UHGV virus genome: UHGV-0241471
Length of the DNA: 35,693 bases
Source: a virus
Strand: one strand, 5' to 3'
Made by a program: the position numbers and the translations under genes. Below, piece by piece: positions 246 to 34,991 of this stretch. The first letter of the stretch is position 1. Each line of letters starts with the position of its first letter. The notes beneath the pieces were generated by a model. The model was given only the letters and a program-made list of their open reading frames with translations, had not been told where the DNA came from and searched no databases.

Positions 246-1019
246 TTACAACTTAAAGAGTTTTGCTTGCCCTGGATTAACAGCTTCGACGTAGTTTTTG
301 ACCCCTATTCTGTGCGGCTCATAATTGCTTGAATAGAAATCAATCAGGAAGTCACTCATTTTCTGAGATGTGACTTTCATAACTCCCTTACTCAAAGTTA
401 AATTAAACACGCTAATCTTTGACGATGGTGCCTGAGTTTTACTCATGTTGGCTTGATAACCAGATTTACGCATTGCCACTAGTGCTTCGTCGTAAGCCGC
501 TTGTAATTGGGCCAAATCGTTTGACGAGATGATCACATCATCCATAAACACACTTAGCTTGAGATCATGATGTTTGTTCAATCGGCGTAGTAAGCTACCA
601 AAATAACTTTTATCTAAGCAGAGGGTTGCAAGTATTGGAGATTGAACAAAACCAAAAGGGAGGACATGCTTATGTGGACTATGGGACAAGTTTCTTACAG
701 TTGAAAATGTTGAGATTTCCCGCGCTTGAGAATAGGTGAAGTAGCTCTTTAGATCACGGGTGATACGACTACGGCTCGTTGACTGAAAAAATTGTTTAAT
801 ATCAACAACGGCAAAAAAATCACTTTTTAAGTGTAATCTGGCAGCTTTAAGATGCCCACCAGTTCTTAGATGGTAAAAATAGAGTGGCGGAATCCACTTG
901 TTTCTGACAGCCTGAAGTATCTTCCCTCCGACTTTACGTGCCTCAACGCTTGGGACATAAACCCAAACCCCGGGCTTAATCTCAAATTTATCTTCCCACC
1001 TTTGAACTTCTATTGTCAT
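246..1019 (-). CDS. Compact reverse transcriptase (257 aa), retron/defence-associated RT-like; palm motifs present, catalytic box FMDD
   Basis: Translation shows motif A VVDIKQFFQS (res 71-80), motif B' LPFGFVQSPILATL (120-133), motif C FMDD (158-161, nt 537-548); N-terminal VYVPSVEARKVGGKIL and H-x3-D-F spacing resemble retron-type RTs as recalled. In-frame TAA two codons upstream of the ATG; no obvious SD. Confidence 0.8.
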   Translation of the reverse strand: MTIEVQRWEDKFEIKPGVWVYVPSVEARKVGGKILQAVRNKWIPPLYFYHLRTGGHLKAARLHLKSDFFAVVDIKQFFQSTSRSRITRDLKSYFTYSQAREISTFSTVRNLSHSPHKHVLPFGFVQSPILATLCLDKSYFGSLLRRLNKHHDLKLSVFMDDVIISSNDLAQLQAAYDEALVAMRKSGYQANMSKTQAPSSKISVFNLTLSKGVMKVTSQKMSDFLIDFYSSNYEPHRIGVKNYVEAVNPGQAKLFKL

Positions 1020-1422: not shown

Positions 1423-1641
1423 TTAAATCGGCAAACCCACCTGTTTAAATTTATGAGGATGCGGCTGAACCGGATTTGACTCTTTTGGCGTTGCAATCGA
1501 ACGAACAAAAGTTTCATGGGTAACAAAAGTATGGCTGCAGTTAATGTTCTGGCACTGGTTGTAACGCTCTTTGGTCAATGAAGATACCTGAAAACTGCTG
1601 CGAGTATGGGCGGCACTTCCACACAGTGGGCAAATCATCAT
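1423..1641 (-). CDS. ogr: Ogr/Delta-type zinc-finger late transcription activator (72 aa from internal MM start)
   Basis: MMICPLCGSAAHTRSS…KERYNQCQNINCSHTF matches the Ogr C4 zinc-finger pattern; GGGGAGA SD before ATG at 1641; the longer upstream ORF extension is unlikely. Confidence 0.85.
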   Translation of the reverse strand: MMICPLCGSAAHTRSSFQVSSLTKERYNQCQNINCSHTFVTHETFVRSIATPKESNPVQPHPHKFKQVGLPI

Positions 1642-1730
1642 TTTCGAGTTCTCCCCATTTTTGCTAAATTCACAATAATGATACCGAATTATTCCATTTT
1701 GAAAACTTAAAAGTTCTCCATTGCGAAGAA

Positions 1731-2831
1731 TCATTCCATTTCGAAATCATCAATCTTCACTTCAAGCTCCAGACTGGTCGTAAAACCGTTATCCGGGCTG
1801 ACAGTATGCGTCAGGGTGGTAATAGTCCATTCCGCATCATCTATCTGCTGTTTAAAGCCACTGACTTTCACTGGCATTTCCGTGTAGAGATCTGCCCGCC
1901 CTTCCGCCAGTTGTAGCGAGAATGACGCAACGCCGCGTTGCAGGCGTTCCCACTGCATTTTCGCCGCTCGTTCGGCGTTGCTCCGGTTGGCATAAGTGCG
2001 ATTAAGTACCAGCACGTTTTCATCCGTACCCACCAGGTAATCGCCCTGCTTCGCTTCCGGCTCTTTCTTCTGCTTCTTAGTTCTGCGCTTACGCTTCACC
2101 GTGGTGCTTTCTTTCTTCGCAGGTTCACGGGTATGCAACCAGCTGGCAATTACGCCCGTGTAGGCTCCGCGATCTGCCAGGGTAAAGCGGTGACTGTCGC
2201 CGTCCTTGCGTGTGATAGTGATCACTGGCAGTGGTTTACCAGTGGCGCTTTTGCCCTGCCCCTGCCGGATGAATAACAGATTGCCATTTTTCACCGACGC
2301 GATGGCACCGTACTGTCGCGCCAGTCGCATCAGAAAACTGCCGTCACTCTCATTAGTCTGGTCTATATGCTCCACGGGCTTATCCGACAGCTCTTTACCC
2401 AGTGCCATCTTCAGCTTGTGCCGCGCGGCTATTTCCTTCACCACTTCCCCGATGGTGGTGTTATGCCACGATTTTTCACGGCGGGTATTCAGGGTTTCCC
2501 GAAAATCAGCACTTCGCGCCCGGATAGTCAGGCGGTCCGGTGCGCCAGTGTGTTCAATCTCGTCCACCGTGAATGCCCCTTTCGGGAAAAGCGGCTGCCC
2601 CTTCCAGCCCAGCGCCAGCGTAATGACCGCACCACGGCGCGGCAGCACGATTTTTCCATCGGCGTCGTCCAGCTCCAGATCAAGCTGGTCCGCTTCAAAT
2701 CCCCGGTTATCCGTCAGCGTCAGCCCCATCAGGCGGTTGTCCAGCACAGTGGTGATATCCCTGCCTTCAATACTGATGCTGAATGCCGGAGTTTTGTTGC
2801 CTTTGTTAAGCAGTTCAGAGCTGAAATTCAC
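1731..2831 (-). CDS. Tail protein, P2 gpD-like
   Basis: 366-aa ORF in conserved P2 position between U and ogr; N-terminus typical of gpD family as recalled. Confidence 0.8.
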   Translation of the reverse strand: MNFSSELLNKGNKTPAFSISIEGRDITTVLDNRLMGLTLTDNRGFEADQLDLELDDADGKIVLPRRGAVITLALGWKGQPLFPKGAFTVDEIEHTGAPDRLTIRARSADFRETLNTRREKSWHNTTIGEVVKEIAARHKLKMALGKELSDKPVEHIDQTNESDGSFLMRLARQYGAIASVKNGNLLFIRQGQGKSATGKPLPVITITRKDGDSHRFTLADRGAYTGVIASWLHTREPAKKESTTVKRKRRTKKQKKEPEAKQGDYLVGTDENVLVLNRTYANRSNAERAAKMQWERLQRGVASFSLQLAEGRADLYTEMPVKVSGFKQQIDDAEWTITTLTHTVSPDNGFTTSLELEVKIDDFEME

Positions 2832-8710: not shown

Positions 8711-9277
8711 TCAGGGGGATTCATTGCTCTTATTTGCCGGAAATTTTCTATAAATGGTAGAAACGCCTACATCAAAAATCAGTGCAATACGCTGTCTTGA
8801 TTCTCCGGCCTCGAGTAAACGCCCAATCTGTGCCCACTGTTCGGTGGTCAACTTAGGACGGCGTCCACCTACTCTGCCTTTGGCACGAGCTGCAGCCAGC
8901 CCTGCCATGGTACGTTCAACTATCAGTTCGCGTTCCATTTTAGCCAGGACCCCCATGACATGAAAAAAGAAACGGCCCATTGGGGTGCTGGTATCAATAC
9001 TGTCAGTCAGGCTTCGGAAATTCACGCCACGCTGACGCAACTCTTCTATCAGTGTAACAAGATGCCGCATACTGCGCCCCAACCTGTCCAGCTTCCAGAC
9101 AACCAGAGTGTCTCCTGCCGATAGTGTCCTGAGCAGTTTTTTAAGCCCCGGTCTGTCGGACTTAGTGCCACTGATTTTATCCTCAAAAATCCGCTCACAT
9201 CCCGCGCAGTTCAGTGCATTACGTTGCAAATCGGTGTTCTGGTCATTTGTTGACACGCGTACATAGCCAATAAGCAT
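8711..9277 (-). CDS. Serine DNA invertase (Pin/Gin/Hin family)
   Basis: MLIGYVRVSTNDQNTDLQRNAL… catalytic Ser motif and C-terminal HTH; AGGGGA SD before ATG at 9277; adjacent to crossover site. Confidence 0.9.
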   Translation of the reverse strand: MLIGYVRVSTNDQNTDLQRNALNCAGCERIFEDKISGTKSDRPGLKKLLRTLSAGDTLVVWKLDRLGRSMRHLVTLIEELRQRGVNFRSLTDSIDTSTPMGRFFFHVMGVLAKMERELIVERTMAGLAAARAKGRVGGRRPKLTTEQWAQIGRLLEAGESRQRIALIFDVGVSTIYRKFPANKSNESP

Positions 9278-9332
9278 GATCAATCCCCTGAATAAAAACC
9301 GTGGATGATGCCAGTTAGCCATTATCTCTGCA

Positions 9333-9358
9333 TTTTCATAAACGTTGGTTTAGGAGAA
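9333..9358. repeat. Invertase crossover site (gix/pix-like), left boundary of invertible segment
   Basis: TTTTCATAAACGTTGGTTTAGGAGAA; its reverse complement matches 11209-11234 at about 21/26 positions. Confidence 0.6.
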
Positions 9359-9703
9359 GCGGCGAAAAGGGATGTGGGCACAGGAGATAATCAGATACCG
9401 GATATGGGAGCATTCGCTTCTGGTTCGGGATGGTTCAGGCTACCAGGTGGATATATTGTTCAGTTTGGCACTTTTTCAGGAAACACGACCCGCTTTATCA
9501 GTGGACACTTCCCTATACCATTCCCTAATCAGCCGATGGTTTCAGTCAGTGTTATGTCTGATGCCGTTCAGTCAGACCCGTCGAATCCTGCCCCGCAGGT
9601 TTTGTCTGTAAATTTTGAACATATCAGTAATTCAGCGTGGCGTGTGGCAACCAGTGATATCTCACAGCAATACAGATTCAGTTATATTTCGATAGGACGG
9701 TAG
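9359..9703 (+). CDS. Alternative tail-fibre C-terminal segment, start-less; fused to H only after inversion
   Basis: Open frame continues through the crossover site encoding …GLGE…, the same tetrapeptide encoded at the site inside H. Confidence 0.5.
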   Translation, partial: AAKRDVGTGDNQIPDMGAFASGSGWFRLPGGYIVQFGTFSGNTTRFISGHFPIPFPNQPMVSVSVMSDAVQSDPSNPAPQVLSVNFEHISNSAWRVATSDISQQYRFSYISIGR

Positions 9704-9705
9704 AA

Positions 9706-10146
9706 ATGCAGAAATATATTTTCAGTGCCGATAAAAATGCGTTTTTCCCTGTGGAGCTTAAAATCGCTTATCAGGAATCCGGCGAATGGCCCGATGATGG
9801 AATCGAAATTGACGACACTGTTGCCGCCGAATTTATGAAGGAAGCACCAGAAGGAAAATACAGATGTGTCATCGACGGAATGCCTGCATGGATTGATATT
9901 CCACCGCCAACTCATGAGGAACAAATTGCCGCAGCCGAACTGGAAAAGCAGCAATTGATTAATCAGGTCAACGAATACATAAACAGTAAGCAATGGCCTG
10001 GTAAAGCAGCGATTGGTCGCCTGAAAGGTGAGGAACTGGCGCAATATAATTTGTGGCTGGATTATCTGGACGCACTGGAACTGGTTGATTCCTCCAGTGC
10101 TCCAGATATTGAATGGCCTACGCCTCCGGCAGTTCAGGCCAGATGA
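9706..10146 (+). CDS. Alternative tail-fibre assembly chaperone (Tfa/gpG-like)
   Basis: 146-aa ORF; C-terminal …APDIEWPTPP parallels …APDVIWPELPEA of the opposite-strand copy. Confidence 0.75.
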   Translation: MQKYIFSADKNAFFPVELKIAYQESGEWPDDGIEIDDTVAAEFMKEAPEGKYRCVIDGMPAWIDIPPPTHEEQIAAAELEKQQLINQVNEYINSKQWPGKAAIGRLKGEELAQYNLWLDYLDALELVDSSSAPDIEWPTPPAVQAR

Positions 10147-10720
10147 CATCCGGTGCGGTGCTGGTATCTGTTGCCGTCACCGCGTCAATGTAATCCAGCA
10201 CGGCGTTAAGTCGGGTTGTTTCTGCCTGCGTCAGCTTCCGCCCGGCCCGTAATTTCAGTTGAATCAGACTGATGGAAGCCATTGCTGCATCAATCAGTGA
10301 CTGGCGCTGTGCTTCTGCCGCTTCTACTGCGGCGCTATGCTGTGCCTCAGTATCCGTCACCCATTTCTCACCATCCCATTTATCATATGGCGTTAACGGG
10401 GCGATAGTGGTTGTATTTTCAGGGTAATCACCCGGAGCTGTGATTTCTTTCGATTCTCCTGTTTCGGTGCTATAGATGATTTCACCGCGATGGTCTGGTA
10501 CATATTCCCATGAGTTAAAATCTGCAGAACGGCAGATTGCATAACCAGCTTTATGTGTAACTGGTGCATCTAAACAAGAACATGCCGGGATACCGACGCC
10601 AACGGCAAGATATTCTGTTGATGATGAAATGTATTCCCGTGTCGTGTTGTCATAGTTATAGACGGTAATATCACCCGCTACTGTGGCAATAAATTCACTG
10701 TTTAATTTTGCCTGTGTCAT
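10118..10720 (-). CDS. Tail-fibre assembly chaperone (P2 gpG-like), currently expressed orientation
   Basis: 200-aa ORF immediately downstream of H. Confidence 0.8.
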   Translation of the reverse strand: MTQAKLNSEFIATVAGDITVYNYDNTTREYISSSTEYLAVGVGIPACSCLDAPVTHKAGYAICRSADFNSWEYVPDHRGEIIYSTETGESKEITAPGDYPENTTTIAPLTPYDKWDGEKWVTDTEAQHSAAVEAAEAQRQSLIDAAMASISLIQLKLRAGRKLTQAETTRLNAVLDYIDAVTATDTSTAPDVIWPELPEA

Positions 10721-20709: not shown

Positions 20710-22476
20710 ATGAACACCACACTGACACCCGCAGATCTCGATCCCCGTCGGCAGGCCATGCTGCTGTACTTTCAGGGATACCGCGTAGCCCGCATTGCTG
20801 AAATGCTGGGCGAGAAAGTTGCAACCGTTCACAGCTGGAAAAAACGCGACAAGTGGGGTGACTATGGGCCGCTGGACCAGATGCAGCTCACCACCGCCGC
20901 ACGCTACTGCCAGCTCATCATGAAGGAGCACAAAGAAGGGAAAGATTTCAAAGAGATTGACCTGCTGGCGCGCCAGTCGGAACGCCACGCGCGGATCGGC
21001 AAGTTTAACAATGGCGGCAACGAAGCCGACTTAAACCCTAACGTCGCCAACCGTAACAAAGGCCCGCGCCGTCAGCCGGAAAAGAATGTTTTCACCGATG
21101 AGCAGATTGAGAAGCTGGAAGAAATCTTCCATTCCTCCATGTTCAACTACCAGCGCCACTGGTGGGAAGCCGGAAAAACCAACCGCATCCGGAACCTGCT
21201 GAAGTCACGCCAGATCGGCGCGACCTTTTACTTTGCCCGTGAAGCCCTGATTGACGCCCTGCTTACCGGACGTAACCAGATTTTCCTTTCCGCCAGCAAG
21301 GCACAGGCCCACGTCTTTAAGCAGTACATCATCGACTTCGCCAAAGAAGTGGAGGTGGAGTTGAAAGGCGATCCGATGGTGCTTCCTAACGGGGCCACGC
21401 TTTACTTCCTCGGCACCAATGCCCGCACGGCCCAGAGTTATCACGGCAACCTGTATCTGGATGAATATTTCTGGATACCGAAATTCCAGGAGCTGCGCAA
21501 AGTGGCTTCCGGTATGGCTATTCACAAAAAATGGCGACAAACCTATTTTTCCACGCCATCCAGCCTGACACACAGTGCTTATCCGTTCTGGTCCGGTGCG
21601 CTGTTCAACCGTGGGCGCAACAAGGCCGACAAGGTGGACATCGACCTGTCCCACAGCAATCTGGCCCCCGGTCTGCTGTGCGCAGACGGGCAATACCGCC
21701 AGATAGTCACCGTGGAAGATGCGGTGCGCGGCGGCTGTAACCTGTTCGACCTTGACCAGTTGCGCATGGAGTACAGCCCGGACGAATACCAGAACCTGCT
21801 GATGTGCGAGTTTGTGGACGATCTCGCGTCCGTGTTCCCGCTCAGCGAGCTGCAGGCGTGCATGGTGGACAGTTGGGAAGTCTGGACCGACTTTCATGCT
21901 CTGGCCCTGCGCCCGTTTGGCTGGCGCGAAGTGTGGATCGGTTATGACCCGGCAAAAGGTACGCAAAACGGCGACAGCGCCGGGTGCGTGGTGGTGGCTC
22001 CGCCAGCCGTGCCGGGCGGTAAGTTCCGCATTCTTGAGCGTCACCAGTGGCGCGGGATGGACTTCCGTGCCCAGGCGGACGCCATCAAAAAACTGACTGA
22101 ACAGTACAACGTGACCTATATCGGTATCGACTCGACAGGTGTCGGTCACGGGGTTTATGAGAACGTAAAAGCGTTCTTTCCTGCCGTCCGGGAGTTTGTC
22201 TACAACCCCAACGTTAAAAACGCCCTGGTACTCAAGGCCTACGACATTATCAGCCACCGCCGTCTGGAGTTTGACGCCGGGCACACCGACATTGCGCAGT
22301 CCTTTATGGCAATCCGTCGCGCCACCACCGCCAGCGGCAACCGCCCAACCTATGAAGCCAGCCGCAGCGAAGAAGCCAGCCATGCCGATCTGGCCTGGGC
22401 AACAATGCACGCACTGTTTAACGAACCGCTGCAGGGCGAATCCGCCAATACCAGCAATATTGTGGAGATTTTTTGA
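20710..22476 (+). CDS. Terminase large (ATPase) subunit, P2 gpP-like
   Basis: 588-aa ORF; deviant Walker A SRQIGAT and Walker B LYLDEY seen in translation. Confidence 0.9.
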   Translation: MNTTLTPADLDPRRQAMLLYFQGYRVARIAEMLGEKVATVHSWKKRDKWGDYGPLDQMQLTTAARYCQLIMKEHKEGKDFKEIDLLARQSERHARIGKFNNGGNEADLNPNVANRNKGPRRQPEKNVFTDEQIEKLEEIFHSSMFNYQRHWWEAGKTNRIRNLLKSRQIGATFYFAREALIDALLTGRNQIFLSASKAQAHVFKQYIIDFAKEVEVELKGDPMVLPNGATLYFLGTNARTAQSYHGNLYLDEYFWIPKFQELRKVASGMAIHKKWRQTYFSTPSSLTHSAYPFWSGALFNRGRNKADKVDIDLSHSNLAPGLLCADGQYRQIVTVEDAVRGGCNLFDLDQLRMEYSPDEYQNLLMCEFVDDLASVFPLSELQACMVDSWEVWTDFHALALRPFGWREVWIGYDPAKGTQNGDSAGCVVVAPPAVPGGKFRILERHQWRGMDFRAQADAIKKLTEQYNVTYIGIDSTGVGHGVYENVKAFFPAVREFVYNPNVKNALVLKAYDIISHRRLEFDAGHTDIAQSFMAIRRATTASGNRPTYEASRSEEASHADLAWATMHALFNEPLQGESANTSNIVEIF

Positions 22477-23201
22477 TGCCCCCAATCCCAACTAACCTCA
22501 TGACTATCGCGGGACTTCCGGTGGATAGCTCTTTCTTTGCTTACCAGTATGAGTGGAACACTAGCCCAAAGAGTAGAAACCGTGTACTCACAAAAATGCG
22601 CCAGGCAGGCGCGAATTTCTTTTTTTCCTATGAAGCCCTGAACGATGCACTGCATACCGGGCGTAACCAGATTTTCCTCTGCTGCAGCACAGCATCTGCC
22701 CTGACAGTCAAAACCTATATGTCAGCCTTTATAGATCAGGCCGCAACCTGGACACACCTTGGGAAAATAAAATCAGGTAAAGCGCATCTGGAACTACCTA
22801 ACGGTGCGGTCATTTATTTTATCGGGCCGAAAAGTCTCGCCGCCGCGCTCCATGGAAACGTCTATGTGTCAGAGTATGCCTGGGCGGACTCCCCGAAAAA
22901 TATGATTGCGCTCGCCAAAAGCCTGTCCATGCACGCGCGCTATCACGCTACCTACTACACCACCCCAAGCCCCAGCCCGGAAGCATGGCGGGAATACAAG
23001 AAGCTGATTGCCCGCAACAGCACAACCAGCATGATTTTTACCGCTGATGACGCTGCAGCATCCGGGGCAACGCTCGCAACCGGAGCCGCGCTCTTTGATG
23101 ATGAATGGCTTAATGACATGAAAAAAGAGTTATCAGCAGAGGACTGGAAAATGCTGTTTATGTGCGAATGGCCCCAGACTGACAAGGAGCAGGCGGCATG
23201 A
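22476..23201 (+). CDS. Truncated, divergent terminase-ATPase-domain paralogue inserted between terminase and portal
   Basis: 241 aa; by-eye alignment to gpP residues about 125-345 (e.g. ALNDALHTGRNQIFL vs ALIDALLTGRNQIFL; TYYTTPSPS vs TYFSTPSSL; LFMCEW vs LLMCEF); TGATG overlap with P stop and ATGA overlap with Q start. Confidence 0.6.
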   Translation: MPPIPTNLMTIAGLPVDSSFFAYQYEWNTSPKSRNRVLTKMRQAGANFFFSYEALNDALHTGRNQIFLCCSTASALTVKTYMSAFIDQAATWTHLGKIKSGKAHLELPNGAVIYFIGPKSLAAALHGNVYVSEYAWADSPKNMIALAKSLSMHARYHATYYTTPSPSPEAWREYKKLIARNSTTSMIFTADDAAASGATLATGAALFDDEWLNDMKKELSAEDWKMLFMCEWPQTDKEQAA

Positions 23202-24238
23202 GCAAACGTAAAAACAAGAATAACCGCGCAGCAGTAGATCACAACCCAAATTCAGGCGGTGCTGCGGCAGAGGCGTTCAGCTTTGGCGACCCGGTGCCGG
23301 TGTTAGACCGACGCGAATTGCTGGACTACGTGGAATGCGTGCAGATGGATCGCTGGTATGAACCGCCGGTGAGCTTTGACGGACTGGCGCGGACCTATCG
23401 CGCCGCCGTGCATCACAGCTCACCGATTGCCGTTAAGCGTGACATTCTCAGCAGTACCTATATCCCGCACCGCCTGCTCAGCCAGCAGGCTTTTGCCCGT
23501 TTCGTCCAGGATTATCTGGTGTTCGGTAACGCCTATCTGGAAAAGCGCACCAACCGGCTCGGCAGCGTTCTCTCGCTGGAGCCAGCACTGGCGAAGTACA
23601 CACGGCGCGGCGTGGATCTCGACACCTACTGGTTTGTGCAGTATGGCATGACCACGCAGCCCTATGAATTTACGCAGGGCAACATCTTTCATCTGCTGGA
23701 ACCGGATATTAATCAGGAGATTTACGGGCTGCCCGGCTATCTCTCCGCCATCCCGTCAACCCTGCTCAACGAGTCAGCAACGCTGTTTCGCCGGAAGTAT
23801 TACATCAACGGCAGCCACGCGGGTTTCATCATGTACATGACCGACGCAGCACAGAATCAGGAGGACGTGAACAATATCCGCCAGGCAATGAAAAGCGCCA
23901 AAGGGCCGGGCAACTTCCGCAACCTGTTTATGTATTCGCCCAACGGTAAAAAGGACGGCATCCAGATAATCCCGTTGTCGGAAGTTGCGGCAAAGGATGA
24001 ATTTCTGAACATCAAGAACGTGAGCCGTGATGACATGATGGCTGCTCACCGCGTGCCGCCGCAGATGATGGGCATCATTCCCAACAATACCGGCGGCTTT
24101 GGTGATGTGGAAAAGGCCAGCCGCGTCTTTGTCCGCAACGAGCTGATGCCGCTGCAGAAGCGACTGCAGGAGCTTAACGACTGGCTGGGCGAAGAAGTGA
24201 TCCGCTTTGAGCCCTACACCTTAGATATTGAAAACTAA
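23198..24238 (+). CDS. Portal protein, P2 gpQ-like
   Basis: 346-aa ORF, conserved position next to terminase. Confidence 0.9.
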   Translation: MSKRKNKNNRAAVDHNPNSGGAAAEAFSFGDPVPVLDRRELLDYVECVQMDRWYEPPVSFDGLARTYRAAVHHSSPIAVKRDILSSTYIPHRLLSQQAFARFVQDYLVFGNAYLEKRTNRLGSVLSLEPALAKYTRRGVDLDTYWFVQYGMTTQPYEFTQGNIFHLLEPDINQEIYGLPGYLSAIPSTLLNESATLFRRKYYINGSHAGFIMYMTDAAQNQEDVNNIRQAMKSAKGPGNFRNLFMYSPNGKKDGIQIIPLSEVAAKDEFLNIKNVSRDDMMAAHRVPPQMMGIIPNNTGGFGDVEKASRVFVRNELMPLQKRLQELNDWLGEEVIRFEPYTLDIEN

Positions 24239-24240
24239 TA

Positions 24241-24268
24241 CAGAGAGCGCTTTGCAAAGCGCCCTCTA
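24241..24268. terminator. Palindromic hairpin between convergent portal and SEFIR-like genes (putative bidirectional terminator)
   Basis: Perfect palindrome GCGCTTTGCAAAGCGC (24247-24262) flanked by T-rich runs on both strands. Confidence 0.5.
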
Positions 24269-24272
24269 ATTT

Positions 24273-25706
24273 TCATTCAATACTATCTAGACGACTAACA
24301 TTCATTTTATTGAGAAAGTCTCTATTAAAACCGAAATGATACCAGTTACTAGTATTTCGCTGGGCCTCACCCTCTGTCAGCTTTTGAGCCAAAAGTTTAC
24401 TGTCATCGATTCCGGTAATAACTGCAATACTCTTGAATCCTCTATGCTGTATTGCTCTTGTAAATAGAGGATATTTCTCATAGTGCCCGGAATACAACAA
24501 CATTTGCGGGTACCAAAAAATACCGGGATTAATGAAGGATATCATAAGAGCAACAAGATCAGCTTGTTTCAAATCATCGAAAGACACATCATCTCTAGTT
24601 GCACTTTGCTTTACTAACTCAGCAACAGGGGAATACAGTCGATAGTTTTCAGGGGACAATTTACTTTGAAGGTAATCAGAGCTTAAATATAACTCACTGT
24701 AATTAGCAAACTCCATTCCCGGACTGGTTATATGATCGGGTAGCAAATAAGATGTATGCAGTAATGTATGTACATGCTGGAAAGCTTCAATTTTTATTAA
24801 AGCCGCCAAAATATATAAAAACGTTTCATACGCAAAAATCTGATGGGGCAAAAACCATATTTCATTATATGAATTTACATTTTTCGGACGATTTCTAATC
24901 GCTAACATTACTTCCATAAACTGTAATAGTGCTTTGGAAAAGTCTTCGCCCTGCGTATCACCCTCAAGTAAAACCCAGTCTGTAATGGCATCCCTAACGG
25001 CAATAAGCTCTTTATGAATTTGCAAAACTTCCGCTGCAAAATCTTCAGTAGTTGGGTTTGTTACGACTTGTAGTGAGATACAATAATTTCGGCACACCTC
25101 TAAAAATTGCCTTCTGCAATCCTTTAATGTCTGCTTTTGATTTAAGACAGCTGATTTTAAAGTTTGAAATTTTGCATGAATTTCATACGTCGGTTTTGAC
25201 GTGTCTTGCTCTAAATAAACCGGAGGCTTACCTAATGGTGGCTTAGTAAATTCTGGTTTTCCATAAAGCAACCTGATTAAACGTTCCCAATTATCATTTT
25301 CTTTTTCTGGTGTTGAAAAATCAATATAGATTCTAGACTTCAGAAAGATTGGAGTATACGGCTCTCCATTATCTTTGTACTCAAATATTAATGGTATAAA
25401 TTTGGACTGCGACACGGATGAATATATTTCCTGGGAAATTATCATCGACTCAACACCGACACCATCTTTTCTTAAATCGGCTTTTTCTGAGTATTTTTTA
25501 TCACAAATGACTAAAACATGCGTAACCGTTTCATCTTGAACCATTCTTTCCATGTAATAATTTTTATCATCCCCTTCTTTCAAGTCATAAATATCTATGA
25601 CAGTTTCAACTCCATCTGCCGCCAATCGTTCAGCCATATCTTTGATATGTTGCTGATGAGTTTTACTTGACCAACTATAGGATATAAAAACTTTTGGCTG
25701 GATCAT
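24273..25706 (-). CDS. SEFIR/TIR-like domain protein (477 aa), candidate standalone anti-phage effector
   Basis: N-terminus KVFISYSWSS…IDIYD…FIPLIFEY fits the SEFIR/TIR pattern as recalled; about 300-aa helical C-terminal domain of unknown type; GGGAGG SD; visibly AT-rich versus flanks. Confidence 0.6.
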   Translation of the reverse strand: MIQPKVFISYSWSSKTHQQHIKDMAERLAADGVETVIDIYDLKEGDDKNYYMERMVQDETVTHVLVICDKKYSEKADLRKDGVGVESMIISQEIYSSVSQSKFIPLIFEYKDNGEPYTPIFLKSRIYIDFSTPEKENDNWERLIRLLYGKPEFTKPPLGKPPVYLEQDTSKPTYEIHAKFQTLKSAVLNQKQTLKDCRRQFLEVCRNYCISLQVVTNPTTEDFAAEVLQIHKELIAVRDAITDWVLLEGDTQGEDFSKALLQFMEVMLAIRNRPKNVNSYNEIWFLPHQIFAYETFLYILAALIKIEAFQHVHTLLHTSYLLPDHITSPGMEFANYSELYLSSDYLQSKLSPENYRLYSPVAELVKQSATRDDVSFDDLKQADLVALMISFINPGIFWYPQMLLYSGHYEKYPLFTRAIQHRGFKSIAVITGIDDSKLLAQKLTEGEAQRNTSNWYHFGFNRDFLNKMNVSRLDSIE

Positions 25707-25785
25707 CCTCTGCCTCCCTTAGGTTTGATGTTTGATTTATATGACAAATATTTTAACAAGTCTAGGGGTTTACCTGTTGCGCGCG

Positions 25786-25806
25786 CTCGTATCCCCGCCA
25801 CGCCTG
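25786..25806. other. Candidate cos site (cohesive-end region)
   Basis: Reverse complement reads GGCGTGGCGGGGATACGAGC, matching the first 13 nt of P2/186 cos ends as recalled; exact boundaries not determinable here. Confidence 0.35.
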
Positions 25807-26008
25807 CCCGCTTTATGTAGTGGTTTTCATGCACCTGCATGATCTACGCAAAAGCCCACCAGTTCTGGCGGGCCTTAGCAAAAACGATCCTCAAACGATC
25901 ATGCGATCTCATGCGGCATAGACATGCACTACAGAGCTAACGCCTCGCAAGGGCTCGTTGTTCAACCTTGCTGACGCCAGAAACAAGTTCAGACGCCAGC
26001 AACGTTTC

Positions 26009-26242
26009 TTAATGCAGCCAGCTGTCGTCTTCCCACACCTTCTGCATAATTTCCATTACCCGCTGCTTATCCTCATCAAGTTTTAAGCCGGTCAACTCGA
26101 TACCGTTGGCACTGCCTTTGCGAATGCGGATCGCCGTCTTGGGATACAGGGGGCGCAGATTGCGGTAAAGCTCGGATTCAAGGGCGTCCAGGGTAGACTG
26201 GCTAATCTTCTGCTCTTTATCGATCATTATTTCAATGCGCAT
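26009..26242 (-). CDS. DinI-family protein (77 aa from MRIEIMIDKEQK)
   Basis: MRIE…DALESELYRNL…DKQRVMEIMQKVWEDDSW resembles DinI; GAGGTGA SD before ATG at 26242. Confidence 0.7.
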   Translation of the reverse strand: MRIEIMIDKEQKISQSTLDALESELYRNLRPLYPKTAIRIRKGSANGIELTGLKLDEDKQRVMEIMQKVWEDDSWLH

Positions 26243-26252
26243 AAAAGTCACC

Positions 26253-26441
26253 TCAGCTGATGACATCCATTGAGCGGTTGTATTCGTGAGTTCTGATTTT
26301 TGCCATGAGTTCATCTGTCAGTTCAGAAACCCACTGCAAAGCCAGCCCCTTCTCTTCATCACTACACTCACTAGCCGCTACAAGCTTAAGAAAAAAATCA
26401 ATGCGCTGGAGCTTCAAAGACTCCAAAAAATAGTCCTGCAT
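26253..26441 (-). CDS. Small protein (62 aa) downstream of a LexA box; possible Tum-like antirepressor N-terminal module
   Basis: AGGAGG SD before ATG at 26441; LexA box about 45 bp upstream; followed directly by DinI-like ORF. Confidence 0.45.
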   Translation of the reverse strand: MQDYFLESLKLQRIDFFLKLVAASECSDEEKGLALQWVSELTDELMAKIRTHEYNRSMDVIS

Positions 26442-26594: not shown

Positions 26595-29009
26595 TTAATA
26601 CAGGTTTCGCCACTTATCATCTTCCTGCAAACGCTGGTTCCGACAGAAGATACGCAGGCCTGCTCCTGACGGAATACTGCCACCGCGAAGGAGCAGATCG
26701 ACCTCTTTCTCGCTGCCATCAAATCCTCTTGACTTCAGTTCATAGACGAGCTGCTGTCGCTGATGGTCTGTAATTCGCTGTTTGTAGTCTTTACGCCGTT
26801 TCGGTTTCACCAGGCGTAACCTTGCAGCCAGTTCCCGGCGCTCTTTTTTGCTCATACTGTGCAGGTAATCGTGCAACTCCTTGTCATCCATGCGGGTAAT
26901 GTCCGTCCTGGTATCCCCATCAGCTGATTTGTCTTTCCCTTGTTGGTTCAAATTTTCAGCAAGGGGACAGTTATTGCCACGAGTCCAAGGGGCGCAAGCG
27001 CCCTGGTCGGCTGCCGCCTCCTGAACGTCAACGGCCTTACGAACCATTTTCCACTTCACGGCATGAGTGCAGATCTTGCCCTCTGCAATAGGTGACCAGA
27101 TGCCATAAATACGAATGCCGTGATCGCCATAGGCGGTCGGCTCTTCGTTGATTTCATAAGCAGTTCTGATGAGGTGATATTTACGGGGAACCAGTACGCC
27201 GCCCTGCTTCATGATGTAGGTGGCAAAACAACCAGCATCAGCAGCAGCCAGGATTGCATCAAGGCGCGGGTTATCCAGTACCGGCGCACCTGCTTTTTTG
27301 TCACCCTGTTGCCTTGCCGCCTGACCAGCCAGCAATCGCAGTTCACGGTAAGCCTGACGCCCCGGAATGCCAAAGAAGCGGAATTGCTGAACACGATGCA
27401 GAGACGCCCAGGCATTCACGTATTCAGCGTTATCACGCAGGGATTTACCCGTTTCCTTGCTGATCTCGCCAGCCAGACCACGCCCGTCAATGTTCTTACT
27501 GATATATTTCGCGATGTAGCTTGTCGGCGTTCCTTTGCGCGGGTTAATCAACTCAGACTTAAAGCGTGGTCCCGTGTTATTCCCCAGCTCCTCGCGGTCT
27601 TCACGAATGGCAAACTTACGCAACAAAGCAGTAATGGCGCGGCGATCTTTTTTGCGCATAAAACACAACAGGTGCCAGTGAACTGTACCGTCATGATGCG
27701 GCTCAGCCACCCGCACGCCATACCAGCGCAATCCGGCTTTGTGCATCGCCTTACGAAATGCAGCAAACATGCCAACCAGATAATCACTGCTTTGTCTTAC
27801 CGTCGCATTTGTCCAGGTCGGGTTGGGCCTGCCGTTATTTAGCGTGGAATGGAAACGTGACGGACAGGTGATGGTGTAGAAAACGGCGCAGTCACCGCGC
27901 ATTTCCGCGATAAGCTCCAGGCCTTTAACACAGGCCATCATCTCATTGCGGCGATGCGCAGGGTTGCTGCTGCTGGCGTTTACCACATCCTCCATGTCCA
28001 GCGTGTCGCCGTCTTCGTTCACCAGTTCATGAGAACGGAAAAACTCCAGCGACTTACGGCGCTGCTCACGTTTATGCATCACGGCTTCATAGCTGACATA
28101 GGGAGATGCTTTTTTGCTGACCAGACAGACAGCACGCAACTGCTCTTCCCGCCATTCGCAACGCATCTTCCATAATTTCCGATACCACCAGTCGGCGCAC
28201 AGCATACGCGCCAGCGAACCCGGAATGAGTTCATAGGGCACAGGTTTGCGGCGGTTTCTTTTCCGGCGGAGTTGCTCAAACGCAGGCGGTATGACATCCA
28301 GTCGCAGGGTTTCTGCTGCCACCTTTTCCCATGTCTTGCGGATTTCTTCCGGCTTAACATCATCGGAGGCGTACAAATCACCACAAGCGGCATCAAGACA
28401 CATGCTCATATGCGCAGCGACAAGGGTGGACAGGCGTTTCACCTGATCCTGACTCATTTCAGGCAGGCTCAGCAGACCGTCCAGCCCTTCATGGCTTGCC
28501 ATAAAACGAAAAGATGCAGATAGCTGGCTGTCGCGTACATGCTCCAGTCGTTCCAGGCATGGCTTAATCGTCTCACGCAAATAGCGGGAATAAGCCTTTG
28601 GCCTGCCCAGGTTGCTGAAGTATTTAATACGTTGCATCAGCGGCTTGCTGATATGGGAAGGCTGGGCGTTGACATCCGCCAGAATGACCATGTCTGGATT
28701 AAAACGCTGCTGCTCATGCGCCAGCTTTGCCCGGCTAATTAGCTTATCCTGCTCCATTTCGCGCTGGACAGGATCACGGGATTCATTAAAGAAATAACGC
28801 TCCCAGACCTGATCACTCAGTGCCTCGCGGCGCAGTTGTTCCTGCTCGTTATCGGCAGCGTACAGAGTGATCAGGTTTGAAAGCGCAGAAACCGGCGCAA
28901 CTTCCGCCGGGTCCAGATAAGGGTTAATGGCCTTTTTCGGGCTGTTCCATGAGAATGCTGCGGCAGCCTCGTTAAAGCCGCAGCAGTTGTTCATATCGGC
29001 ATGGCTCAT
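26595..29009 (-). CDS. Rolling-circle replication initiator, P2 gpA-like
   Basis: HuH-like VHWHLL and active-site tyrosine pair SYIAKYISK seen in the 804-aa translation; start codon uncertain. Confidence 0.85.
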
Positions 29010-29863
29010 GCACGTACTCCGTACACGGCAGAACTGTCCACGCCACGCGAATAATCAAATCCCACCCAGCAGCGCGGCCCGGAAACAGCAATGATTTCTG
29101 TTGCTGATTTACCCTCTCCAGCTGCCACACCGATGTTGCGTTTTGCCTTGATGTAGTGGTGAGTAAAATTGCGATACAGCGAACGGATCAGGGATGTGTC
29201 ACTGTTAGAAACAATGACCGGATGTCCTTCTGATGACCGATGTTCAAGAACGGATGCCAGGTGATACTGGTCATCTTCAGTGAAGCCGTCAGTGTGATAA
29301 CCGGAAAACGTGCCGTCATACGGCGGATCGCAATACACCACATCCCCCGCCTTCAACATCGCCAGCGTTTCATCAAAGCTGGCGCAGATAAACGTTGCCC
29401 GCTGGGCTTTTTCTGCAAATGCGCGAATTTCTTTTTCAGGGAAATACGGATTTTTATAATTACCGTAGGGAATGTTGAAATGCCCGCTCTTGTTATAGCG
29501 ACATAAACCACGGTAACCGTGACGATTGAGATACAGGAAATATACCGCTTTCATGAAATCAGTAATTTCAGTGGAGTAATTAAACTCCTGCCTTATGTTG
29601 TAATAAGCCACCTCCCTGTTTGCGATCTCAAATAAAACTCTGGCGCGAGATATAAACGATTCACAATCAGCGGCAACCTTTTTATAGAGGTTGATTAAAT
29701 CAGGATTAATATCCGCAACCAGATAGCTGGGGTAATCCGTCTCCATCATCACAGCACAGGAACCCGCGAAAGGTTCAACCAGTCGCGGGCCAGCAGGAAG
29801 GTGTTTTTTCAGTTCGGACATAATGGCGGTTTTATTTCCCGCCCATTTCAGGATGGTGCTCAT
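29006..29863 (-). CDS. DNA N6-adenine methyltransferase (Dam family), orphan
   Basis: DPPY motif ([10 protein letters not shown]) and N-terminal AdoMet-binding region; strong GGAGG SD before ATG at 29863; no adjacent restriction gene. Confidence 0.85.
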
Positions 29864-30087
29864 ACAGCACCTCCGTTGTAATGTTTGCCTTTCAGCTCTG
29901 CGATTTCCTGACAGGTAATGCAAAGCTGCACACCTGGAATGGCGCGGCGGCGTGCTGGCGGAATTGGCGCTTCACACTCAATGCAAAGCACGCGGGACAC
30001 GCCCGGCGTTTTGGCACGGGCAGCACGAATATGGCGCTGGCGTTCTTCTTCAACGCGCTGCTGTACAAGATCCATTGCATCAGCCAT
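29860..30087 (-). CDS. TraR/DksA-family C4 zinc-finger protein
   Basis: CIECEAPIPPARRRAIPGVQLCITCQ four-cysteine motif. Confidence 0.7.
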   Translation of the reverse strand: MADAMDLVQQRVEEERQRHIRAARAKTPGVSRVLCIECEAPIPPARRRAIPGVQLCITCQEIAELKGKHYNGGAV

Positions 30088-32444: not shown

Positions 32445-33458
32445 ATGACCATCAGAAAACAGCCGAACGGAAAGTGGTTATGTGAATGCTACCCAAACGG
32501 GCGAGATGGCAAACGCGTACGCAAACAATTTGCGACGAAAGGCGAAGCCATTGCGTTTGAGAATTTCACCATGGACGAGGTAAACAAGAAACCTTGGCTG
32601 GGAGAAAAGGAAGATCGGCGACACCTATCAGAATTAATTGAGCTGTGGTATTCCCTGTATGGTCAAACACTCGCAGACCCCAAGCGACTCATGGCGAAAC
32701 TTGGAATTATCTGTAATGGTCTGGGCGATCCCATCGCTTCAGAGCTGACTGCCGGTGACTTTACGAAATACCGCGAAGCACGGCTAAAAGGTGAAGTGCG
32801 AAATGAAGATGGCACGCTGATGTCGCCCGTTAAGCCCCGCACGGTAAACCTTGAACAGCGCAATCTATCATCTGTGTTCGGTACATTAAAAAAACTAGGA
32901 CACTGGTCAGCACCAAACCCGCTGGCAGGACTTCCGACCTTCAAAATTGCCGAAGGTGAGCTGGCTTTTCTTTCCACGGACGAAATCAAGCGCCTGTTGG
33001 CGGCATGTGCTGAATCTCAAAGCCCTAGCTTACTAATGATTGCAAAAATATGCCTGGCTACTGGCGCACGGTGGAGTGAAGCCGAAAATCTGCAGGGCCA
33101 TCAAATATCGAAATACCGAATTACTTATACAAAAACAAAAGGCAAGAAAAACCGTACTGTGCCGATATCTCAGGATCTGTATGATGAACTCCCCAAAAAC
33201 AGAGGAAAGTTATTCACGCCATGCAGAAAAGCCTTTGAGCGGGCAGTAAAGCGGGCCGGTATTGACCTACCGGAGGGCCAATGCACCCACGTGCTTCGCC
33301 ATACATTCGCCAGTCACTTTATGATGAACGGCGGAAACATACTGGTACTGCGTGATATTTTGGGTCATGCCGATATAAAAATGACCATGATTTACGCCCA
33401 CTTTTCGCCCGATCACCTTGAAGACGCGGTGACTAAAAATCCTCTTTATAATTTGTAG
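32445..33458 (+). CDS. int: Tyrosine integrase (P2/186 Int family)
   Basis: C-terminal catalytic signature HVLRHTFAS … HADIKMTMIYAHF; start overlaps cI stop. Confidence 0.9.
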   Translation: MTIRKQPNGKWLCECYPNGRDGKRVRKQFATKGEAIAFENFTMDEVNKKPWLGEKEDRRHLSELIELWYSLYGQTLADPKRLMAKLGIICNGLGDPIASELTAGDFTKYREARLKGEVRNEDGTLMSPVKPRTVNLEQRNLSSVFGTLKKLGHWSAPNPLAGLPTFKIAEGELAFLSTDEIKRLLAACAESQSPSLLMIAKICLATGARWSEAENLQGHQISKYRITYTKTKGKKNRTVPISQDLYDELPKNRGKLFTPCRKAFERAVKRAGIDLPEGQCTHVLRHTFASHFMMNGGNILVLRDILGHADIKMTMIYAHFSPDHLEDAVTKNPLYNL

Positions 33459-33470
33459 TGGAGACCTATT

Positions 33471-34991
33471 GTGATTCAAAAATTAGATATTCAATCTGAT
33501 GCGGTTGCAAAGTTAAGAATGGATGCTATTCGTTCAGAAATCCAAGGTTATTCCCCTGATTTATTTATCGAATTCTGTATGCAATATAACTTACAAAAAT
33601 TTGAAGATAATATCCACATGTTACGACACATGCCTTGGATTGTTAATTTATGTCTAAAGTGGTCTGCGTCAGTAACTGGCAAGAATAAAAAATTCAAAAT
33701 CCTCGATAAAAATCAAGCAATAAAACTCTTCCAAAAAACTTATGAAACCTTGAACATTATTCCTATCGGTCTTGAGAGGAAGAATGGCATGCATTTCTTC
33801 ATTAGAAATAATCTATACCAACAAGGAATCTACCAGAAAATTGACGCTCTAAACACAATTAGCAGACAAGTCTTTCTATTTTCAGAACTTGAAAAAAACC
33901 ATAAAATAAAGACAAGTTTTTTTACTATCACGAATGTATCTATCGAAGACTTTCTTAAGCTATCTTACATATTAATAACTCACATAACAGAAGAGCATCC
34001 CGTGAGAAAAATGAATGTAGATACATTTACTATATTATTTGACATCATTCCTAGAAATACCATTGAGAAATTTCTTGATGCAATATCAATAAATTACAAT
34101 GAACTATCTACATTTTGCAAATCAAAAACCTATGATAAACCTTTGCTTGAATACTACTCATCATCACCTTTTCTTGAAAAACCATTAATAAAAAAAGGTT
34201 CAGAGTATTTTCAGATACACACACAACTGACTTCAACAAGCATACAGACGTTCATATATGATCTTTTAAGAAGAACTGATGCCGAGAAGTTCATGGATAG
34301 CTTTGGAAATGTATTTGAAAATGCACTGGAATTAATACTAAAAGAAAGCGAAATTGATTTTCATAACGAAAAATACCTTAAAGAACGACTACCTAAAGAT
34401 AATAAAGTAGTTGATTATTTCATTCCACATACTGAGGCAAATATTTTCATTGATGCTAAAGGCGTTGAGATACACCAAAAAGGCATGGTAACATTACGCC
34501 CTGAGGATATTGCAGGAAAAATAAAGAAATCGGTATTAAAAGCAATCGAACAATCTCACGAAGTTAATCGAGAAATATACTCTAATGAGCGAATAATAGC
34601 TCCATTCAGGGCTAACTCATATATCATTTGCATTACATATAAAAACCTTTTCTTAGGCAATGGTAGTATCCTAGCTAATACTTATGCTAAAGATGAGATG
34701 AATAAGATATATGACAAGTTTAAACATAACTATCATATCCCTACAGAGAATATTTTTTGTCTATCATTTGAAGAGTTTGAATATCTCATTGCATCATGCA
34801 AAAGGTTTAAAATTCCGCCTCATGAAGTCTTGCAATCTGCAGTTGAAAAGAACAAAAAACCATCAAGTGCTGCTTTCCTATTTTCCCACCATATAGAAGA
34901 CTATTTTGATAGAGTAGTCAATTCAGTCATAGTCAATGAGGCAGGCATTAAAATGGTAGATTCTATTATCAATAAATTAAAGCCTGAATAA
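33471..34991 (+). CDS. AT-rich cargo protein (506 aa) with PD-(D/E)xK-like nuclease motif; candidate defence or abortive-infection gene
   Basis: GTG start with GGAG SD 8 nt upstream; motif VVDYFIPHTEANIFIDAKGVE (D … D-A-K) about residues 330-350; composition markedly more AT-rich than the phage backbone. Confidence 0.6.
   Translation: MIQKLDIQSDAVAKLRMDAIRSEIQGYSPDLFIEFCMQYNLQKFEDNIHMLRHMPWIVNLCLKWSASVTGKNKKFKILDKNQAIKLFQKTYETLNIIPIGLERKNGMHFFIRNNLYQQGIYQKIDALNTISRQVFLFSELEKNHKIKTSFFTITNVSIEDFLKLSYILITHITEEHPVRKMNVDTFTILFDIIPRNTIEKFLDAISINYNELSTFCKSKTYDKPLLEYYSSSPFLEKPLIKKGSEYFQIHTQLTSTSIQTFIYDLLRRTDAEKFMDSFGNVFENALELILKESEIDFHNEKYLKERLPKDNKVVDYFIPHTEANIFIDAKGVEIHQKGMVTLRPEDIAGKIKKSVLKAIEQSHEVNREIYSNERIIAPFRANSYIICITYKNLFLGNGSILANTYAKDEMNKIYDKFKHNYHIPTENIFCLSFEEFEYLIASCKRFKIPPHEVLQSAVEKNKKPSSAAFLFSHHIEDYFDRVVNSVIVNEAGIKMVDSIINKLKPE

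Follow-up and report, generated by a model that had tools for sequence, protein, structure and literature searches.

A bSEFIR family gene in an exchangeable cassette beside cos of a P2-like prophage

Introduction

The bSEFIR system described by Millman et al. (2022) consists of a single gene, which is found in a defence hotspot and encodes an N-terminal SEFIR domain fused to a C-terminal domain, about 300 aa long, that is specific to the family. The only tested member that we found in the literature is the protein of Bacillus sp. NIO-1130, and the sole mutation reported for it is D40A, located at a predicted SEFIR-SEFIR interface (10.1101/2022.05.11.491447). In later work, SEFIR was described as a single protein whose N-terminal domain depletes NAD+ to yield ADPR and nicotinamide, and this defence was neutralised by NARP1, a phage NAD+-reconstitution pathway (10.1101/2024.02.11.579819). 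The structure of BcSEFIR from B. cereus F65185 (PDB ID: 5y8e/5y8f; Yang et al. 2018) represents the same kind of N-terminal domain as that of the protein analysed here, but it was solved as an isolated domain only.

Two further systems are comparable in part. DSR2 likewise combines an N-terminal NAD+-consuming effector with a large helical C-terminal domain, acts by abortive NAD+ depletion and is countered by NARP1; for the protein in this study, the NAD+ consumption is predicted and the effect of NARP1 applies to its family. The effector of DSR2, however, is a SIR2 domain, and its C-terminal domain is an alpha-solenoid that binds the phage tail tube, whereas our protein is SEFIR/TIR-like and much smaller. 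The SEFIR domains of eukaryotes (IL-17 receptors and Act1) have the same fold as the N-terminal domain of our protein. They serve, however, as signalling adaptors in membrane-receptor complexes, and they lack its C-terminal domain. To our knowledge, eukaryotic SEFIR domains have no NADase role.

In P2, a defence hotspot lies between gpA and gpQ beside cos (Rousset et al. 2022, PMC9122126). In the supplementary table of hotspot contents from the same study, WP_001399243 appears in gene sets labelled "TIR_2/SEFIR", one of them from NZ_CP025865, and the text makes no mention of testing it (PMC9122126). The gpA-gpQ hotspot was re-examined in a 2026 preprint (10.64898/2026.02.27.708500). The gene in this study was found in the viral genome UHGV-0241471, the whole analysed stretch of which (35,693 nt) is hereafter called the window. 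It likewise lies between gpA and gpQ, by cos, and is variable. The protein is identical to WP_001399243 at 473 of 477 residues. The gene is already known on three levels, namely as a family (bSEFIR), as a locus (the P2 gpA-gpQ hotspot) and as a protein (annotated in RefSeq and tabulated). In the searchable literature, we found no phage-defence experiment on the enterobacterial SEFIR allele. Beyond annotation, the finding has little significance: a prophage carries a recognised family of NAD+-depleting abortive-infection gene.

Here we report the family membership, domain architecture and single-gene status of this gene, the boundaries of its cassette and its allelic replacement by other abortive-infection genes. 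We consider it a bSEFIR defence gene in an exchangeable cos-proximal cassette, for which abortive infection through NAD+ loss is inferred from the work on the family. We give this reading a probability of roughly 85%.

Gene and protein family

The first-pass annotation of the window had described an AT-rich 1.4-kb gene convergent with the portal gene, and this description was borne out. The gene, its leader and the portal gene are located as follows.

23198..24238, plus strand: portal gene (gpQ homologue), a backbone flank, identified by the portal annotation in homologous records
24273..25706, minus strand: bSEFIR gene, ATG start, 477 aa plus stop codon
25707..25777, minus strand: cassette leader with candidate promoter and Shine-Dalgarno sequence, read by hand
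25764..25759 and 25741..25736, minus strand: candidate promoter, TAGACT and TATAAA separated by a 17-nt spacer, a hand-read 9/12 match
25719..25714, minus strand: Shine-Dalgarno sequence GGGAGG, read directly from the sequence

The bSEFIR gene and the portal gene are convergent and separated by a gap of 34 nt. The GC content of the bSEFIR gene is 0.359 (35.9%) and its GC3 is 0.31, whereas the corresponding values of the portal gene are 0.552 and 0.70. The terminase and gpA genes showed GC contents of 0.53-0.57, and the flanks of the bSEFIR gene are at about 55%. The stop-free run extends over 477 codons, compared with a mean of 80 and a maximum of 173 when the same 1434 bases were shuffled 1000 times. 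The 477-aa protein was matched by more than 1200 proteins in the database, which come from many phyla and are mostly full length, at about 477 aa. The open reading frame at 24273..25706 is a real gene.

For the gene to be expressed in the lysogen, the cassette itself would have to provide a promoter. A sigma-70 consensus scan of the leader called no promoter. The two hand-read hexamers listed above, just inside cos, may serve this role.

The profile searches that had been proposed along with the first-pass annotation gave significant matches, both in Pfam (see below) and in PADLOC. The protein matched the PADLOC bSEFIR profile (PDLC03957) with an E-value of 9.6e-103, residues 3-471 being aligned to profile positions 38-380 of 412. 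Since 469 residues are aligned to 343 profile positions, this clade has insertions relative to the PADLOC profile. PHROG 11745 was matched over the full length (2.5e-223). The protein showed no meaningful match in NCBIfam, and nothing in Pfam matched outside the SEFIR/TIR domain. Judged by these profiles, the gene belongs over its full length to bSEFIR, a family of single-gene systems for defence against phages. It is worth noting that the prototype of bSEFIR is a Bacillus protein, whereas the allele in the window is enterobacterial and prophage-borne; the two are likened via the PADLOC profile.

Domain architecture and predicted depletion of NAD+

A full-length AlphaFold2 model was built from 40 homologues, with a mean pLDDT of 84. 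The protein is composed of two domains connected by a linker.

25257..25697, minus strand: N-terminal SEFIR domain, aa 4-150, predicted NADase/oligomerisation effector
25197..25250, minus strand: proline-rich disordered linker, aa 153-170, with AlphaFold2 pLDDT below 50
24276..25196, minus strand: all-helical C-terminal domain, aa 171-477, presumed sensor/regulatory domain

The N-terminal domain had been annotated as a SEFIR/TIR-like fold, and sequence and structure comparisons both agreed with this assignment. In Pfam, SEFIR matched aa 4-143 with an E-value of 1.5e-14 (55.0 bits), and TIR_2 matched with an E-value of 2.7e-13 (50.9 bits), so that the lead of SEFIR is only 4 bits, a small margin. 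Members of bSEFIR were originally selected by the rule that the SEFIR match be stronger than the TIR match in HHsearch (10.1101/2022.05.11.491447). The protein in the window follows the same order by Pfam bit scores, although the original rule is based on HHsearch. In a sequence search of the PDB, the only significant relatives were 5y8e and 5y8f, the former with an E-value of 2.4e-29 over aa 4-158, and the GVGxE motif is common to our protein and 5y8e, the B. cereus SEFIR domain. The predicted structure, which had also been proposed as a check, showed the SEFIR fold. The best Foldseek matches of the N-terminal domain were again 5y8e/5y8f, with target TM-scores of 0.83-0.87. The next ranks were occupied by 9ot1_E, an entry of the IL-17RA/RB/ACT1 complex (E=2.4e-4, 23% identity), followed by the TIR domains of MyD88 and SPARTA (15-17% identity).

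Invariant residues of the SEFIR domain in the 40-sequence alignment, which extends down to 47% identity, include D38, E44, D47, E53 and E86. D38 and D47 are invariant in 40/40 homologues and align with D37 and D46 of BcSEFIR. Either D38 or D47 may be the counterpart of the tested D40 in the Bacillus sp. NIO-1130 protein. E86 belongs to the invariant G-V-G-x-E motif and is located between beta-C and beta-D of the model, in a loop modelled at low confidence (pLDDT below 50 for residues 81-87). In TIR NADases, the catalytic glutamate is located between beta-C and beta-D. E86 is thus a candidate, and probably the likeliest one, for the catalytic glutamate.

The C-terminal region of about 300 aa had been expected to be helical, and AlphaFold2 indeed modelled aa 171-477 confidently as an all-helical fold. 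Neither a structure of this domain nor that of a full-length bSEFIR protein was found in the PDB. Its similarity to solved structures is that of a generic helical repeat, without a specific relative, and no enzymatic or pore-forming fold was seen. Invariant residues in the same alignment include W244, E248, Y298, R371, D373, W398, R417 and Q420. Since invariant residues occur in each domain and the length is conserved among the more than 1200 homologues, both domains are considered to be under purifying selection.

When the C-terminal domain was used as the query of an exhaustive HMMER search, 535 representative proteins were obtained. Full-length homologues are about 470-490 aa long, and in them the domain begins near residue 170. 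When ten of the homologues were scanned with Pfam, six showed SEFIR or TIR on the N-terminal side of the domain, and another effector domain was found in none of the ten (0/10). In this sample, the C-terminal domain appears to occur only in fusion with SEFIR. We also considered whether it could be a promiscuous sensor attached to varied effectors. The search lent this idea no support; the proteins found are of bSEFIR length or fragments, and the lone outlier, of 659 aa, carries SEFIR.

On the basis of the family work, we propose the following mechanism. In the lysogen, the protein would be made from its own putative promoter just inside cos. The C-terminal helical domain would keep the protein inactive and, upon infection by a competing phage, might sense an infection cue. 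The SEFIR domains would then associate, followed by hydrolysis of NAD+, in which the catalytic glutamate would most likely be E86. The loss of NAD+ would abort the infection, and the lysogen population, together with the resident prophage, would be protected.

There is another possible interpretation, in which the protein defends the cell but does not act as an NADase. As in IL-17R/Act1, the SEFIR domain would serve only for homotypic interaction or scaffolding, and the C-terminal domain or a recruited host factor would bring about toxicity or exclusion. The C-terminal domain is conserved as strongly as the N-terminal one, and the closest structural relatives after BcSEFIR belong to the IL-17RA/RB/ACT1 signalling assembly. 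In addition, the sole mutation in the 2022 preprint, D40A, hits the predicted interface and not a catalytic site (10.1101/2022.05.11.491447). These facts are consistent with a scaffold. In the later work, however, the SEFIR N-terminal domain depleted NAD+, and NARP1 abolished the defence (10.1101/2024.02.11.579819). The invariant E86 at its position between beta-C and beta-D of the model, and a C-terminal domain without an enzymatic or pore-forming fold, also argue against this interpretation. We therefore consider a defence independent of NAD+ hydrolysis improbable.

Location of the gene beside cos

The features on the other side of the bSEFIR gene are as follows.

25786..25804, minus strand: putative 19-nt cohesive end (cos), GGCGTGGCGGGGATACGAG, aligned to P2 cosL and 186 cos
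26009..26314: DinI-like gene between the gpA homologue and cos (Pfam DinI, 2.5e-24)
26595..29009, minus strand: replication endonuclease (gpA homologue), the other backbone flank, identified by annotations in homologous records

When the P2 cohesive end GGCGAGGCGGGGAAAGCAC was searched for with up to 3 mismatches allowed, no match was obtained. The putative cos was recognised by inspection of the upstream spacer of 302 nt and by alignment with the annotated ends of P2 and 186; it differs from the P2 cohesive end at 5 positions. The pattern common to the cos of the window, P2 cosL (nt 1-19) and 186 cos (nt 1-19) is GGCG.GGCGGGGA.A..A..GCGCGC. The 19-nt sequence of the window is identical in Fels-2, RE-2010, 813R9 and KpST15phi14.1.

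The cos at 25786..25804 and the portal stop codon at 24238 place the SEFIR gene between the portal gene and cos, where the first-pass annotation had put it. The annotation had also stated that the portal gene abuts cos in P2, so that the gene would be an insertion. This statement agrees with the P2 record, in which cosL occupies nt 1-19 and the stop codon of Q is at nt 187; in 186, cos occupies nt 1-19 and the stop codon of W is at 196. In both phages, only about 170 nt separate cos from the portal stop, and this interval holds only a terminator. The corresponding distance in the window is 1547 nt.

Exchange of the cassette

The segment that is exchanged and the terminator at its portal end are located as follows.

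24239..25777: exchangeable cassette, delimited by alignments and BLAST breakpoints, GC 0.362
24241..24268: bidirectional intrinsic-terminator hairpin, 12-bp stem, T-run on both strands

Homology to the sister phages stops at the portal stop codon; at the opposite end it breaks off after CGCGCGCAA, 9 nt beyond cos, where the BLAST breakpoints fell at query positions 70-73 of 25707-26008. Since the homology ends at these two edges, the cassette was defined as 24239..25777. The terminator hairpin is common only to the Klebsiella phage with the same cassette and is not found in Fels-2, RE-2010 or 813R9. It is therefore assigned to the cassette.

The same slot is filled differently in the sister phages, the DinI-gpA flank of which is 93-100% identical to that of the window. 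An AbiU/AIPR gene, convergent with the portal gene, occupies the slot in Fels-2 (PADLOC AbiU, 2.7e-112) and in RE-2010 (7.8e-68). In vB_EcoM-813R9, the slot holds a gene of the same orientation for a Hypoth_Ymh protein, which also matched PADLOC models of the HEPN type. Fels-2, RE-2010, 813R9, the Kp48xx phages and many further relatives whose flanks are 93-100% identical lack the SEFIR gene. The proposal that the gene is variable defence cargo of a P2-like prophage is thus upheld: it is swappable cargo in the cos-proximal gpA-gpQ hotspot of a P2-like (Fels-2/Wadgaonvirus-type) prophage. The locus provides a clean example of how single-gene cassettes (SEFIR, AbiU and HEPN-type) are exchanged, with a joint beside cos that could be mapped precisely.

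A second variable slot was found on the gpA side of cos. It is empty in the window and filled in Fels-2 and KpST15phi14.1. The P2 genes tin and old, as cargo of the hotspot, lie on this gpA side of cos, whereas the cassette of the window lies on the portal side and begins 9 nt after the cohesive end.

Since the joint is only 9 nt from the cohesive end and a second variable slot lies across cos, terminase cutting or recombination at the cos ends could drive the swapping of cassettes. In the literature examined, no mechanism is described for the exchange of defence genes at the gpA-gpQ hotspot. Along the same line of thought, the enterobacterial prophage clade may sense, through its C-terminal domain, a trigger other than that of the prototype from Bacillus; a protein encoded by a competing P2-like phage or by another coliphage would be an example. 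This combined proposal is speculative, and we regard it as rather unlikely in this form.

Occurrence of the gene in other genomes

The same gene was found at 97.5-99.5% nucleotide identity in Escherichia phage 500465-1, in Klebsiella phage ST15-OXA48phi14.1 and in 7 of 5426 complete E. coli genomes, the copies in E. coli being annotated as "SEFIR domain-containing protein". The exact protein of the window is present in NCBI on 60 contigs. The gene could affect phage susceptibility, and the outcome of phage therapy, for lysogens of Salmonella, E. coli and Klebsiella that carry it.

More distant homologues adjoin the portal gene, and are convergent with it, in P2-like prophages of Pectobacterium (61% identity) and Hafnia (49% identity). 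When the Pectobacterium and Hafnia loci were compared, a cos-like motif upstream of the SEFIR homologue was found only in those of Pectobacterium. The homologue of Pseudomonas cichorii is chromosomal and standalone; it lies beside a transposase, outside any prophage. Full-length homologues were also found in Chloroflexi, Thermotogota, Anaerolineales, Ekhidna and Vibrio.

This distribution bears on the possibility that the protein is a factor of lysogenic conversion or virulence, a mimic of the TcpC/TcpB type that disturbs IL-17 or TLR signalling of the animal host, and not a phage-defence protein. The bacterial hosts are Enterobacteriaceae, with pathogens among them; the fold resembles the SEFIR domains of IL-17RA/RB/ACT1 (9ot1_E, E=2.4e-4); and older literature gave bacterial SEFIR proteins general roles in protein interaction (as cited in 10.1101/2022.05.11.491447). 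The same architecture, however, occurs in environmental lineages and in plant-associated Pseudomonas and Pectobacterium, and Pfam gave no match beyond the SEFIR/TIR domain. Furthermore, the slot is occupied in the sister phages by abortive-infection genes, and the HMM of the family derives from a validated defence gene. A role as a virulence mimic is therefore very improbable. That the gene is a conserved phage component, such as a packaging or head accessory factor, might be suspected from its position next to cos, the portal gene and the terminase, but the chance of this is negligible, because the gene is missing in many relatives whose flanking backbone is 93-100% identical, the interval from cos to the portal stop measures only about 170 nt in P2 and 186, the foreign base composition is in keeping with a cassette and the Pseudomonas homologue lies outside any prophage.

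The assignment to the bSEFIR defence family also agrees with the standalone character of the gene, which had been noted in the first-pass annotation. The neighbouring genes in the enterobacterial prophages are different from those at the chromosomal locus of Pseudomonas, and no conserved partner gene was found among the loci compared. In ST15-OXA48phi14.1, three ORFs lie upstream of the SEFIR gene, and they were considered as missing partners. They were rejected as such; all three are absent from the window. The first of them spans cos and is probably a spurious ORF. The remaining two are located in the gpA-side slot and showed neither a significant Pfam match nor a PADLOC match; they do not occur in the E. 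coli, Pectobacterium and Hafnia loci either.

In the record of Escherichia phage 500465-1, the annotation of the SEFIR gene is fragmented into short ORFs.

Genes at the prophage ends

Two genes lie at the prophage ends.

33471..34991 (+), 506-aa ORF, GC 0.314, directly 3' of the integrase gene (32445..33458)
246..1019 (-), reverse transcriptase, 257 aa, Pfam RVT_1 (2e-21), GC 0.40

The 506-aa ORF is a second cargo gene of foreign composition, located at the prophage's integrase-att end; sequence searches of Pfam, PADLOC and the PDB returned no match to it. The integrase-att end has been named a minor P2 defence hotspot in a 2026 preprint (10.64898/2026.02.27.708500). The reverse transcriptase gene is positioned at the opposite end, just beyond the ogr-like gene (1423..1734), and the top PADLOC match of its product was retron RT type VI (6.6e-18). 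The gene may encode a defence of the retron type.

Variable genes near the portal gene and cos

An additional ORF separates the large terminase gene (20710..22476) from the portal gene and shares 4 nt with each of them.

22473..23201 (+), additional ORF, 242 aa

The encoded protein is a paralogue restricted to the ATPase domain of the terminase (33% identity, gpP residues 142-368; Pfam Terminase_6N, 7.9e-15), and the nuclease domain is missing. The same paralogue is present in E. coli prophages and in Escherichia phage 500465-1, where it is annotated as 'terminase large subunit domain-containing protein'. The sister phages Fels-2, RE-2010 and 813R9 and Klebsiella phage ST15-OXA48phi14.1 lack it, and in all of them the terminase stop directly adjoins the portal start. 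The paralogue might serve as a decoy in packaging or modulate it.

A second variable slot is located on the gpA side of cos, with the following contents.

25805..26008 of the window, vacant
5921..6981 of L002 (Klebsiella phage ST15-OXA48phi14.1), 280-aa and 72-aa ORFs
5202..5933 of L003 (Fels-2), 243-aa ORF

The ORFs in this slot showed no significant match in Pfam and no match at all in PADLOC.

P2-like prophages of the Hafnia alvei type (L013, 3498..5273; L014, 3897..5273) carry genes for PAAR-motif proteins (123 and 458 aa) in the interval that separates gpA from the SEFIR gene. PAAR-motif genes are unusual cargo at this position.

The 90%-identity cluster containing the SEFIR protein of the window (24276..25706, -) is represented by a 797-aa 'replication endonuclease', and gpA and SEFIR proteins are mixed in it. 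The mixture probably reflects an artefact of the clustering, for which a chimeric gene call may be responsible. Because of this mixed cluster, the best match to the SEFIR protein in the homologue search was only 89% identical, even though the collection contains an identical sequence.

Methyltransferase and invertase genes

A methyltransferase gene lies directly downstream of gpA, an arrangement also seen in Fels-2, and an invertase gene adjoins opposite-strand ORFs that overlap each other (region 8711..10149).

29006..29923 (-), Dam-like orphan N6-adenine methyltransferase, Pfam MethyltransfD12 (1.5e-76), PADLOC orphan MTase (5.3e-111)
8711..9322 (-), serine recombinase/invertase, Resolvase (6.8e-52) and HTH_7
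9706..10146 (+), tail-fibre-assembly protein (Caudo_TAP), the plus-strand member of the overlapping ORFs

The region 8711..10149 appears to be an invertible segment governing host range, of the Mu G / P1 C type.
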